A stretch of DNA of 40,940 bases from Methanobacteriota archaeon (GCA_034659035.1 JAYEGI010000114.1:1-40940); one strand, 5' to 3'; positions 24,929 through 29,908 are shown, counted from the first letter of the stretch. Notes: generated from the sequence alone by a model not told the origin. Made by a program: numbers and translations.

Positions 24929-25098
24929 GGTATCCAAGCCACTTATCTGTTTTGATGTAACGGAATTCTAGCTCATCCGGAATCCACGAGATTTGACGAG
25001 ATTTGGTAAGTATTATGATCGATGCCCCGCGTCTAAAAAGAAAGGACAAAAAGCGTCGACACAGGGACTTAAGGTATACCCAAAAAGAGGCTATTCCA

Positions 25099-26529
25099 AT
25101 GGATACGCAAAGTATGCTGAAACAGATGTGCAAAAGCGATATTACTGACTCCGATATAAAGGCGATCTGCAAAAGTCGTGGTTTTTCTGCCAAAGAGGCG
25201 ACTTCTCGCGACGTCTTTGAGAACTTCTTTATCTCCACGATTGGCATAAAGGAAGTACTGGACTCATTAACTTACAAGGAAGTTGTATTTCTCCACTTGC
25301 TAAGTAAGATGAAGGAGGAAGTTGGTATCACGTATTTCAAGAGACTATATGGTTGCGCAGAACTCTCAAAAGGGTATTATAATACAACTTTTACCAAGCG
25401 GTATAACGAAACAGTCAAAAAAGTGAAGAGTAATCTGGTGCGAAAGGGTGTGCTCATCGCCATAGAGCAAGAAACATATAGAAAGTCTACTAAGATGGAA
25501 CGCTTACGATTCTCTTTTCCTCCGGAATTTGGAGAATTTCTTCCACCACTCGTCAAGGCTTCCGAATTCAAAAAAGCCGGGAAGTTCAAGAGAGAAGTTC
25601 TGCGTGATAAACTGCTTGAGCTTGCGGGAAGAGAAGGAAAAAGACCATCCCCCTTATCGAACTCAGACAGAAAATCGTTCAAAATCACAATCAACGAAGG
25701 TAATCTGTCTATTGGTGGTAAACAGTTCAGATCAAAATACCTGTTGGATTGGCAGAAAGCTTGCATGCGTGTGTCTATTAAAACCGATATCGAGGAGCGC
25801 GGTTATCCCGGTTATTCAGGTTATCCGAGCGATGATATGGATCCTGTTGATGTTGTACTCTATGCAATCGCACAACTTGGAGAGCATGAATGGCTACCCG
25901 CAGACAGTCTCGAAGTGATACTCAAGATATTTACAGGAGATGATATAAATCACCCCTGCGAACAGATCTGCGAGGCGGGATGGGAGTGGGGCTGCCTTGT
26001 AAAAGTCGTGGTGGATAAAACGGCATACTACCGGTTACCTGATGATTCATTAGACGATGCAGCCGCACCAACGCCTGAACAGTACCTACAGATTGTGCCT
26101 GACGGTACGGTAGTGTTGAATCTGGTAAAAATTCCTTATGCTGCACTGGAAGTGATAGCTTCGGTTGCACTCCTGGATATTCATAACGCCAATCTGCGAG
26201 CGACCGCAAATATCATTAAGATTGGGAATACGCTCACGACGGTTCGGAAAGAAGGTGTTTTTGAGTGGCTAAGGGGGAATTCATCTGGTTTTCGAAGTGC
26301 AATTGAGATTGCTGAAAAGAGATGGGGTAAACAGATCATTCATGAAGACCTGATGGTTGCACAGGTAAAAGATCTGAGCCTCAAGGTGCAGATCGAAAAG
26401 TCATGCACCGGTTCGCAACTTGTATCGCTTCCGGATGATTATATCGCCTTTCCCTGTGGCGTTCTTCCCGCGATACAGAAAGTAGTGAGCGCGTCGGGGC
26501 ACGTGGTCAAGAAGGCGAGGAATGAATGA
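25099..26529 (+). CDS. Uncharacterised protein A of the XPB operon (wHTH-like N-terminal half, XPB-N-terminal-like module at the C-terminus)
   Basis: The track ORF begins at TTG 25003. The first ATGs are 25015 and 25099, and the latter has aagagg 8 nt upstream. The C-terminal LQIVPDGTVVLNLV...VFEWLRGNSSGFRSAIEIAEKRWGKQIIHE parallels the XPB N-terminus. The stop overlaps the next start (ATGA at 26526-26529). Confidence 0.7.
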   Translation: MDTQSMLKQMCKSDITDSDIKAICKSRGFSAKEATSRDVFENFFISTIGIKEVLDSLTYKEVVFLHLLSKMKEEVGITYFKRLYGCAELSKGYYNTTFTKRYNETVKKVKSNLVRKGVLIAIEQETYRKSTKMERLRFSFPPEFGEFLPPLVKASEFKKAGKFKREVLRDKLLELAGREGKRPSPLSNSDRKSFKITINEGNLSIGGKQFRSKYLLDWQKACMRVSIKTDIEERGYPGYSGYPSDDMDPVDVVLYAIAQLGEHEWLPADSLEVILKIFTGDDINHPCEQICEAGWEWGCLVKVVVDKTAYYRLPDDSLDDAAAPTPEQYLQIVPDGTVVLNLVKIPYAALEVIASVALLDIHNANLRATANIIKIGNTLTTVRKEGVFEWLRGNSSGFRSAIEIAEKRWGKQIIHEDLMVAQVKDLSLKVQIEKSCTGSQLVSLPDDYIAFPCGVLPAIQKVVSASGHVVKKARNE

Positions 26530-28241: not shown

Positions 28242-29908
28242 GCTCACAGCCACAAAAGCCACTCATAATCCAGAGTGATCGCACGTTGATGCTCGAAGTG
28301 GGTCACCCGGGGTATGTAGAATGCCGGGATTTTCTATCCCTATTCGCAGAGCTGGTAAAATCACCAGAGTTCATCCATACGTATCGAGTAACCCCGCTCT
28401 CGCTCTGGAATGCAGCAGCACTGGATGTGCCGTTTAACGAGATCACTTGCGGTCTTGAAGAGTTCTCGCGTTACAGCGTTCCGTCAAATGTCATCGTCGA
28501 TATGAGAGAGTGGTACGAGACTTATGGCAAGCTGGTGTTACAGAAAGCCAAAGACGCAGATGACTATCTGGAGCTTGTTGTTACAGACGCCCGTGTTCTG
28601 GAACGAATCAGTAACAATGAGTTATTGGAAGACTTTTGGGTGGATAACGACAGCATCCCCGGACTATTCATACCGCAAGCAAGACGCGGCGATCTTAAGC
28701 ACGCATTGATAAAGGCGGGATACCCTGTTAAAGACCTGTGCGGTTACCTGGACGGCGAACGATTCGACATCACTCTGCGCGACATTGATCTCGGAGGCGA
28801 CTCATTTGCGCTGCGCGATTATCAAAAGGAGGCTATAGATCTCTTTTACTGTGCTGGCGAGAAGACCGGTGGCAGTGGAGTGATTGTTCTTCCATGCGGT
28901 TCTGGTAAGACGATTATAGGTCTTGGAACGATGGCACAGATATCAACATATACCCTGATCATCGCCACCAATACGGTCTCTGTTGCGCAGTGGCGCGATG
29001 AACTTATCGCAAAGACCAGCGTCAACGAAGCAGACATCGGCGAGTATACCGGGCGCATCAAAGAGATTAAGCCGATCACGATCACCACATACCAGATGCT
29101 GACACACCGTAAAACAAAGGATAGTCCGCTTCACAACTTAAAGATCTTTACCGAGCATAACTGGGGGCTAATTATATATGATGAGGTACATATACTCCCG
29201 GCTCCGGTATTTCGTGCAACAACAGAAATTCAAGCCAGACGGCGGCTCGGGCTTACTGCGACACTGGTGCGCGAGGATGGGAAGGAGGATGATGTCTTTG
29301 CACTGATCGGTCCAAAGCGATACGATGTCCCGTGGAAGACGCTTGAGAGTCGCGGCTATATCGCAGAAGCCATCTGTATCGAGTATCGCGTCCCTCTTTC
29401 GCCGGAAGAAGAGCTTAACTACGCTCATGCTGATAAACGGGCTAAGTTTCGCATCGCAGCAGAGAACGAGCGCAAGAAAGAGCTTGTGTGTGAACTCCTG
29501 GAGAACCATGCAGGTGAGAGCATCCTGATCATCGGTCAATTCATCTCGCAGATAGAGAAGCTTGCCAAATCACTAAAGCTTCCGATCATCACCGGTAAGA
29601 CCAAACAGGATGATAGGGAGAAGCTCTATGATGCGTTTCGGAAGGGTGAGATCAACACGCTTGTGGTATCCAAGGTCGCAAACTTTTCCGTGGATCTGCC
29701 TGACGCCAGTGTTATGATTCAGGTATCGGGTACGTATGGTTCGCGTCAGGAGGAGGCACAACGATTGGGGCGCATTCTTCGTCCGAAAGAACATGCATCC
29801 CATTTCTACACACTGGTCTCGAAAGGTACCGTTGAACAGACGTTCGGGAGTAATCGGCAGCTATTTTTGGTGGAGCAGGGGTACAGGTACCAGATCAGGT
29901 ACTTTTGA
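28238..29908 (+). CDS. Long-form XPB/Ssl2/Rad25-type SF2 DNA helicase/translocase
   Basis: 556-aa ORF with an XPB N-terminal module (PLIIQSDRTLMLEV, FAELVKSPEFIHTYRVTPLSLWNAAA). Helicase motifs: LRDYQ, VLPCGSGKT (I), IIYDEVH (II), GLTATLVREDG (III + RED signature) and SRQEEAQRLGRILRPK (VI). Tail: FYTLVSKGTVEQ..SNRQLFLVEQGY. Confidence 0.85.
   Translation: MSSQPQKPLIIQSDRTLMLEVGHPGYVECRDFLSLFAELVKSPEFIHTYRVTPLSLWNAAALDVPFNEITCGLEEFSRYSVPSNVIVDMREWYETYGKLVLQKAKDADDYLELVVTDARVLERISNNELLEDFWVDNDSIPGLFIPQARRGDLKHALIKAGYPVKDLCGYLDGERFDITLRDIDLGGDSFALRDYQKEAIDLFYCAGEKTGGSGVIVLPCGSGKTIIGLGTMAQISTYTLIIATNTVSVAQWRDELIAKTSVNEADIGEYTGRIKEIKPITITTYQMLTHRKTKDSPLHNLKIFTEHNWGLIIYDEVHILPAPVFRATTEIQARRRLGLTATLVREDGKEDDVFALIGPKRYDVPWKTLESRGYIAEAICIEYRVPLSPEEELNYAHADKRAKFRIAAENERKKELVCELLENHAGESILIIGQFISQIEKLAKSLKLPIITGKTKQDDREKLYDAFRKGEINTLVVSKVANFSVDLPDASVMIQVSGTYGSRQEEAQRLGRILRPKEHASHFYTLVSKGTVEQTFGSNRQLFLVEQGYRYQIRYF

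Follow-up and report, generated by a model that had tools for sequence, protein, structure and literature searches.

A three-gene XPB operon of an ANME-2c archaeon as a candidate prokaryotic counterpart of the XPB-p52-p8 part of TFIIH

TFIIH is regarded as a eukaryotic invention that was built around two helicases with prokaryotic relatives. Within this complex, the clutch of p52/Tfb2 (residues 306-399) holds the N-terminal domain of XPB (PMC6422496). Clutch and XPB N-terminal domain share one fold and pair as a pseudo-symmetric dimer, and the C-terminal domain of p52 dimerises with p8, the two together cradling the RecA2 domain of XPB (PMC6422496). Archaea possess no TFIIH-like assembly, and the role of bacterial and archaeal XPB has been called "elusive" (2026 review, PMC13024598). 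No description of prokaryotic p52/Tfb2-like partners of XPB was found in the literature. Here, a stretch of 40,940 nt (the window) from an archaeon of the anaerobic methanotrophic lineage ANME-2c was analysed, the nearest homologues of which are found in Candidatus Methanogaster and other ANME/Methanosarcinales metagenome-assembled genomes (MAGs). The window contains an operon of three genes, A, B and XPB. Our analysis suggests, with somewhat more confidence than doubt, that this operon encodes a three-subunit DNA translocase complex which is a prokaryotic counterpart of the XPB-p52-p8 part ("bottom lobe") of TFIIH.

The operon consists of three open reading frames (ORFs) in the order A, B, XPB, all of them, together with the features described within them, on the + strand. 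Gene A (25099..26529) encodes 476 amino acids (aa) from an ATG and is proposed to specify a second p52/Tfb2-like subunit; gene B (26526..28241, 571 aa) is the proposed p52/Tfb2-like subunit; and the XPB gene (28238..29908, 556 aa) encodes a long-form XPB/Ssl2/ERCC3-type superfamily 2 (SF2) helicase-translocase. A TTG at position 25003 would provide an alternative start of A. Because A homologues comprise 460-476 aa, the ATG at 25099 is the likely start. The original prediction, made from the sequence of the window, had proposed three translationally coupled genes at 25015-29908. The three ORFs and both ATGA stop/start overlaps (26526-26529 between A and B, 28238-28241 between B and XPB) were located, and the proposed span changes in that A more likely starts at 25099. 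The three genes are translationally coupled and co-inherited. This block of 5 kb contains A, B and XPB alone, without a nuclease or other effector gene detectable by Pfam or NCBIfam.

The XPB protein matched the NCBIfam model NF045503 "DNA repair helicase XPB" with 814 bits (cut-off 610) over profile positions 1-547 of 548. Pfam analysis revealed Helicase_C_3, ResIII, Helicase_C and ERCC3_RAD25_C (PF16203, E 3.9e-45). Every helicase motif quoted in the original prediction was found: LPCGSGKT at aa 218-225, DEVH at aa 315-318, TATLVREDG containing the RED signature at aa 340-348 and QRLGRILR at aa 508-515. The N-terminal domain (28262..28633, aa 9-132; PF13625, E 2.8e-25) is predicted to pair with the clutch of protein B. 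Among PDB sequences, eukaryotic XPB was closest with 278 bits, human XPB being aligned over aa 6-553, whereas the short archaeal XPBs (AfXPB and StXPB2) reached 139-161 bits; this search retrieved no bacterial XPB structure. The window XPB is a complete long-form helicase of the bacterial/eukaryotic type, and the match to NF045503 and the difference in bit scores bear out the earlier view that it is not the short archaeal form.

The archaeal XPB-Bax1 pair resembles this arrangement in that an XPB-family helicase stands beside a dedicated partner in an archaeon. However, the window helicase is a long form with a Helicase_C_3 N-terminal domain and not a short form with a damage recognition domain (DRD), and A and B possess neither a DUF790/Bax1 domain nor any other nuclease domain. 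As had been anticipated, the pairing is not of the Bax1 type and neither A nor B matched a nuclease or other catalytic family in Pfam or NCBIfam. A Bax1-type nuclease partner was rejected on account of the long form of XPB and the lack of a nuclease family in A or B. The XPB of Mycobacterium tuberculosis (Rv0861c) belongs to the same NCBIfam equivalog, NF045503, and actinobacterial XPB bears the same N-terminal domain, which is common to bacterial and eukaryotic XPB (PMC3353954). The mycobacterial enzyme was studied alone.

Homologues of protein B numbered 572 by word search, and the B family comprised 552 cluster representatives at E<=0.001. The B clutch, an XPB N-terminal-like module of the Helicase_C_3 type, lies at 27486..27785 (aa ~321-420). 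The window protein itself matched PF13625 below threshold (aa 323-405, E 0.004), and Helicase_C_3 was matched by 22 of 26 close B members and by 28 of 55 diverse ones (best E 3.4e-8). A hidden Markov model (HMM) of B residues 315-430, built from 135 family members, recovered the N-terminal domains of the XPB proteins from the same operons with E-values down to 1.9e-8. Both domains can be aligned end to end, with KVTVQPNFEIHVES opposite PLIIQSDRTLMLEV and LPQNVRIELEEW opposite VPSNVIVDMREW. When the B clutch was merged with the prokaryotic XPB N-terminal domains into one profile and searched against 177,635 PDB sequences, human XPB aa 74-168 (E 6e-7) and yeast Rad25 (E 1.5e-5) were retrieved. 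Judged by these profile comparisons, B clutch and XPB N-terminal domain are homologues. A Helicase_C_3-type domain in B is not new, because UniRef already labels some B homologues as "Helicase XPB/Ssl2 N-terminal domain-containing protein".

Both PF03849 and PF18307 occur in p52 proteins, most of the listed ones having PF13625 in addition. In hhalign, the merged profile of B clutch and XPB N-terminal domain aligned with p52 residues 304-410 (Prob 82%, E 1.1e-5). The two had been merged because hhalign with shallow profiles is insensitive, the known pair of XPB N-terminal domain and p52 clutch giving only E 2.9e-3. The p52 profile was shallow too, consisting of vertebrate sequences and yeast Tfb2 taken from a PDB alignment; the sequence used for human p52 agreed with PDB chain 28jm_D at 100% identity. 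At the level of sequence profiles, the module common to B and XPB is the Pfam module of the p52/Tfb2 clutch. The original prediction had seen that the partners share the XPB N-terminal module; the module was confirmed for B, and the link to the p52 clutch had been missed. TFIIH accordingly offers an immediate structural analogy, by which A and B resemble paralogues of p52.

Both A and B end in a small domain with predicted beta-alpha-beta-beta-alpha topology. In protein B, a (KT)n low-complexity linker (27990..28025, aa 489-500) was read from the sequence and had a predicted local distance difference test score (pLDDT) <50. It is followed by the C-terminal domain (28041..28238, aa 506-571), a proposed p52-CTD-like dimerisation module. 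The expected linker and terminal domain of ~70 aa were thereby recovered, the domain measuring ~65 aa. AlphaFold2 (AF2) models, built on 26-sequence alignments of close homologues, placed strands of the B domain at residues 509-513, 534-537 and 542-546 and helices at 517-529 and 547-558 (pLDDT 65-76). The C-terminal domain of A (26350..26526, aa 418-476), a proposed p8/Tfb5-like dimerisation module, has strands at residues 418-422, 442-444 and 448-452 and helices at 426-435 and 453-465 (pLDDT 68-81). The C-terminal domains of A and B aligned with each other in hhalign with E 1.3e-3 over 59 columns, that is, over the full domain. The B domain also aligned over its full length (56 columns) with the p52 C-terminal domain (E 7.7e-3); merging the A and B domains brought no gain (E 0.019).

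Structural comparison of the models with 350,542 PDB chains by Foldseek matched the B C-terminal domain to the crystal structure of the Tfb2 C-terminal domain (3dgp_A) with a template-modelling (TM) score of 0.67, a root-mean-square deviation (rmsd) of 1.6 A and prob 0.94. A resemblance to the p52-CTD/p8 dimerisation fold is suggested for the C-terminal domains of both proteins. With the complete B model, the top five matches were all p52 chains (8ebu_D, 9pd3_D, 8ebs_D, 8ebt_D and 7egc_4), aligned over ~510 columns, and Tfb2 (7zs9_2, 7o4i_2), the N-terminal half of p52 (6tru_C) and the Tfb2 C-terminal domain (3dgp_A) followed at lower ranks. With the A model, the seven best PDB matches were all Tfb2/p52 chains. 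Chain 8ebt_D was checked and is GTF2H4/p52. Since two independent models of XPB-adjacent proteins both rank the partner of XPB first, these searches argue for a p52 likeness of A and B. The co-inheritance of the three genes was followed in a census of 80 related loci. An A homologue lies upstream of B in essentially all of them, wherever upstream sequence exists, and XPB directly follows A-B in ~54 of the 80.

Several observations weigh against this interpretation. The AF2 models were poor, with a mean pLDDT of 56 for B and 41 for A, and the clutch region of B itself was modelled with pLDDT <50. Foldseek E-values were non-significant throughout (0.08-1.3), as were the TM-scores of 0.12-0.15 of the full models; outside the clutch, the p52 likeness rests on ranking and not on statistics. 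Pfam Tfb2 (PF03849), Tfb2_C (PF18307) and Tfb5 matched none of the 26+55 B and 26+44 A members scanned at a cut-off of E<=0.1-1. Full-length B aligned with p52 with E 0.0066 only, a match driven by the clutch, and the N-terminal regions gave non-significant values (E 0.26-0.5). Outside the C-terminal domain, hhalign detected no paralogy between A and B. For A, an XPB N-terminal-like module could not be established: Helicase_C_3 of Pfam matched none of 70 family members, and hhalign against the A family gave E 0.028 with the merged profile (0.0061 on a sub-alignment) and E 0.11 with the XPB N-terminal domain alone. Merging, which lifted the p52 match to E 1.1e-5, left A at 0.028. In about a quarter of the loci (~20 complete ones), A-B stands without an adjacent XPB, and given these loci A-B may act with other partners. 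Finally, a patchy, transfer-driven distribution such as that described below is also expected of a conflict system.

The putative clutch of A (26074..26346, aa ~326-416) gave a collinear match in the same place and register as the original prediction had proposed. The claim that all three proteins bear the module therefore holds for XPB and, by Pfam and HMM, for B, and is weakly supported for A. The window A protein had no match in Pfam, NCBIfam, PADLOC or PHROGs, and when PDB sequences were searched with sequence profiles of the A and the B family, only chance matches emerged. Residues 19-34 of A (25153..25200, DIKAICKSRGFSAKEA) form a SAP-like helix-loop-helix, a possible DNA-binding element. 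Pfam SAP was matched weakly by 5 of 26 and 5 of 44 A-family members (best E 0.019), which is suggestive only.

Such data could also be explained if only the clutch were shared. B would then be an XPB-binding adaptor with a borrowed XPB N-terminal domain, A would be an unrelated DNA-binding or regulatory protein, e.g., a winged helix-turn-helix (wHTH)/SAP transcription factor for the operon, and the p52/p8 likeness would be an artefact of aligning poor, largely helical models. The lack of a significant Tfb2, Tfb2_C or Tfb5 sequence match outside the clutch, the Foldseek E-values (>0.08) and TM-scores, the non-significant module in A and its weak SAP-like matches are all in line with this explanation. 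However, for both models the top ranks among 350,542 chains go to p52/Tfb2 of two species, which is unlikely to occur by chance for proteins encoded beside XPB. The close fit of the B C-terminal domain to the Tfb2 crystal structure and the alignment of the A and B C-terminal domains are likewise at odds with it, and A, as large a protein as B, is just as tightly co-inherited, which would be unusual for a simple regulator. We regard an operon in which only the clutch is shared as rather unlikely. A and B probably work like p52 and are probably related to it, without being assigned to the Tfb2 family. The structure prediction that had been suggested for A and B yielded poor models, and p52/Tfb2 was nevertheless ranked first; the idea of a multi-subunit machine of XPB and partners sharing its module is supported for B and plausible for A.

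Comparison with the TFIIH XPB-p52(Tfb2)-p8(Tfb5) part revealed several common features. The long-form XPB of the window bears the same N-terminal domain as human XPB, the partner protein B bears a homologous clutch domain, and the small C-terminal beta-alpha-beta-beta-alpha domain of B appears to resemble that of Tfb2. A bears a matching small C-terminal domain and could take the role of p8. The order of a helical/winged-helix region, clutch and C-terminal domain is also that of p52 (PMC6422496). On the other hand, A-B-XPB is prokaryotic and operon-encoded, and it comprises two large p52-like proteins instead of p52 and the 71-aa p8. In B, an extra ~70 aa and the (KT)n linker separate the clutch from the C-terminal domain. 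The window XPB lacks the eukaryotic N-terminal and C-terminal extensions, and genes for XPD, p62, p44 and p34 are not linked to the operon.

We infer the biochemical function of the operon as follows. On the model of the human TFIIH structure (PMC6422496), the clutch of B would pair with the N-terminal domain of XPB in a pseudo-symmetric beta-sheet dimer. B and A would heterodimerise through their C-terminal domains in the manner of the p52 C-terminal domain and p8, and the pair would cradle XPB RecA2 and tune its DNA-dependent ATPase and double-stranded DNA translocase activity. Indirect evidence for such binding to XPB and an effect on its ATPase comes from translational coupling and co-inheritance. 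At their N-termini, the winged-helix-like and SAP-like parts of both proteins may bind DNA or recruit other factors. A would be a second, more diverged p52-like paralogue that has taken the role of p8. As the most likely cellular role, we propose with low certainty that the complex opens DNA or translocates on it, in repair or in another DNA transaction of the housekeeping type.

Relatives were found in at least 213 GTDB species, the A-B pair being usually accompanied by XPB. The archaeal carriers include ANME-2a/b/c, Methanoperedens, ANME-1, ANME-3 and other Halobacteriota. Bacterial carriers belong to Chloroflexota, Desulfobacterota (among them MAGs with the labels SeepSRB2 and EthSRB1), Planctomycetota and Bipolaricaulota, and further to Parabeggiatoa, SAR324, spirochaetes and one betaproteobacterium. 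Archaeal examples, of which the original prediction knew none, are thus abundant. In a neighbour-joining tree of B, a first, tight archaeal clade is sister to Bipolaricaulota and is always accompanied by XPB, and a second, separate archaeal clade comprises A-B only. As both are nested among bacteria, at least two transfers from bacteria to archaea have to be assumed, as well as exchange among ANME lineages. Within clades the operon is stable (69-93% identity). The cassette appears to be an accessory module that has spread horizontally among bacteria and has entered ANME/Methanosarcinales at least twice.

The loci without XPB form clades in the same tree. Downstream of their A-B genes lie unrelated genes, e.g., for CobN, PKD proteins or planctomycete cytochromes; an alternative third gene in these loci was rejected since the downstream genes are unrelated housekeeping genes. 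Six loci of the second archaeal clade (ANME-1/Halobacteriota; L060, L064, L073, L074, L076 and L087) have A-B without adjacent XPB, often followed by CobN, and the same arrangement occurs in Planctomycetota and some Chloroflexota. The same operon as in the window is borne by two Deltaproteobacteria MAGs (L047 and L048) with the record labels EthSRB1 and SeepSRB2, names which we take to denote sulfate-reducing partner bacteria of alkane-oxidising archaea. Its presence in MAGs so labelled fits gene exchange in seep consortia, yet the nearest bacterial relative of the first archaeal clade is a Bipolaricaulota MAG.

In the window, the operon lies at the junction of the convergent genes TatD and rnfB. 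Junction copy A (24633..24928) consists of the true TatD-like 3' end, a spacer and a degenerate rnfB 3' fragment, with repeat families D3, D4, D6 and D7. Junction copy B (30066..30317) consists of a TatD 3' pseudo-copy with an in-frame TAG and an rnfB 3' fragment and is a relic of the uninterrupted TatD/rnfB junction; neither copy is assigned to a strand. Repeat analysis and alignment showed that these copies are real and that the operon lies between them, as originally described. L008, L011 and L034 share the rnfB fragment that lies upstream of the operon. In two related loci, L034 and L009, the order is TatD, degenerate rnfB 3' fragment, A-B-XPB and intact rnfB, so that, as in an att-like direct repeat, an rnfB 3' duplicate lies upstream and the intact gene downstream of the operon. 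This arrangement indicates that the insertion of the operon, which duplicated ~80 bp of the rnfB 3' end, is ancestral to this clade. L034 and L009 contain only this first block, and L011 contains the operon together with the TatD pseudo-copy. Among the loci compared, the window and L011 have the TatD pseudo-copy (30066-30218), whereas L034 and L009 lack it; we read this copy as having arrived with later insertions. In the ANME-2c lineage, the operon thus appears to have been inserted long ago into the rnfB 3' end, at a site that later took two further insertions.

The operon block has a GC content of 0.47, near that of the flanks (0.49-0.50), and contains no integrase, transposase or other mobility gene. 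An autonomous integrative element was rejected, because the block has no mobility gene of its own and no relatives were found in the plasmid, phage and IMG/VR collections. The operon had been called mobile; insertion and transfer across domains support this, whereas the lack of a mobility gene and the stable inheritance within clades do not.

Further partial junction copies lie at 35141-35315 and 37276-37450. The convergent TatD/rnfB junction is a repeated insertion hot spot, at which four full or partial copies delimit three inserted blocks. In block 2 (30318-35140), a DUF4258 toxin-antitoxin (TA) pair is accompanied by a secreted multidomain protein of 1192 aa. The pair (30609-31202, - strand) comprises a DUF4258 toxin-like gene (105 aa) and a 91-aa partner with two CxxC pairs and no Pfam match. 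The gene of the secreted protein (31239-34817, - strand) encodes Peptidase_C39_2, Laminin_G_3, Peptidase_M23, DUF2341 and dockerin domains and contains ~150-nt tandem repeats at 33574-34091. Its 3' (dockerin) end has been copied ~840 nt downstream as a 122-nt direct repeat of 85% identity (30419-30540 / 31259-31380), a further sign of local rearrangement; the downstream copy sits in a region with only spurious ORFs. Block 3 (35316-37275) is bounded by 175-nt rnfB 3' copies, the first of which falls in a short Fer4 ORF in L001. Its genes, GmrSD_N (DUF262) first and RiboL-PSP HEPN second, occupy 35503-37216 on the + strand. Because its GC content is 0.35 compared with ~0.50 around it, block 3 looks recently acquired.

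The original prediction had interpreted the operon as a defence machine: A-B-XPB would survey DNA and restrict viruses or plasmids from a mobile block within a defence island, as part of conflicts with mobile genetic elements. Such a system would account for the patchy, transfer-shaped distribution across bacterial phyla and two archaeal clades, and the hot spot of the window does hold the DUF4258 TA pair and the GmrSD_N and RiboL-PSP HEPN pair. These defence-like neighbours are, however, read as later insertions because they are absent from the relatives L034 and L009; the TA and DUF262/HEPN modules are accordingly later arrivals at the hot spot and not partners of the operon. The helicase core of XPB also resembles PbeA (E 5.7e-24 against the PADLOC models) and TIGR04095 of NCBIfam (E 2e-16), so that it can be aligned with PbeA/Dnd-type SF2 restriction helicases. 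Yet the match of XPB in PADLOC runs through the generic helicase core only. A Dnd/Pbe restriction module was rejected, as the likeness is confined to the generic SF2/ResIII core, PbeB-D and Dnd genes are lacking, and neither partner protein had a meaningful match in PADLOC.

The neighbourhood of the operon was surveyed with regard to the same question. Contexts vary among lineages and are conserved within them. The ANME-2c context is TBP-TatD / rnfB, the operon follows the V-ATPase operon in a Methanoperedens genome, and it stands beside CTP synthase in L006. Among 133 flanking ORFs, the commonest Pfam families were CdhD, FeS, AAA, TBP and AAA_14. Matches to defence models in these ORFs were few (Septu-like 2-3, AbiL-like 3), and no single defence family matched more than 5 of the 133; IetA and TRIP13 matches may catch housekeeping AAA ATPases. 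In L005 (6975-14824), two CdhD-family genes of 483 aa each, one with an additional FeS domain, flank the cassette, which is encoded on the opposite strand. We read these genes as cdhD and cdhE of the carbon monoxide dehydrogenase/acetyl-CoA synthase (CODH/ACS) operon. To judge from ORF sizes and the neighbour census, L019, L022 and L024, two of them ANME-1, probably have the same arrangement. If the cdh reading holds, the cassette interrupts a core energy-metabolism operon.

The census of neighbourhoods for defence islands thus revealed mostly housekeeping flanks (cdh, V-ATPase, CTP synthase, TBP/TatD and CobN), and only a few other loci have the Septu-like or AbiL-like neighbours that a defence system would favour. 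Neither A nor B had a meaningful match in PADLOC (PADLOC-DB v2) or PHROGs, and no relatives were found in 72,556 plasmids, 50,697 phage records or IMG/VR. The absence of a nuclease or other effector domain and the stability of the operon within clades likewise speak against a defence system. The defence reading is not supported by these results, and we consider it distinctly improbable.

With a three-subunit XPB translocase complex as the preferred interpretation, A-B-XPB might also bear on the origin of TFIIH. More tentatively, and with considerable doubt, we propose that A-B-XPB is a prokaryotic relative, possibly the source, of the XPB-p52-p8 lobe. Eukaryotic XPB and p52 would then have been inherited, or acquired, as a pair from an operon of this kind, and p8 would be the detached C-terminal dimerisation domain of an A-like paralogue. 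If this were true, part of TFIIH would predate eukaryotes, and a free-standing translocase complex would still be at work in bacteria and methane-oxidising archaea.

The distribution of the operon, which is carried by ANME-1, -2 and -3 and by SeepSRB2- and EthSRB1-labelled MAGs, bears witness to the passage of genes between bacteria and archaea in the communities of methane seeps. Should A and B prove p52-like, the logic by which XPB is regulated, i.e., the clutch dimer and the cradle formed by the C-terminal domain and p8, would predate eukaryotes. In bacterial XPB, the unexplained N-terminal domain would gain a function, namely docking to a p52-like partner, and past biochemistry on isolated bacterial XPB may have missed activating subunits. 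The operon would then offer a small three-protein system for dissecting the control of XPB by p52 and p8.

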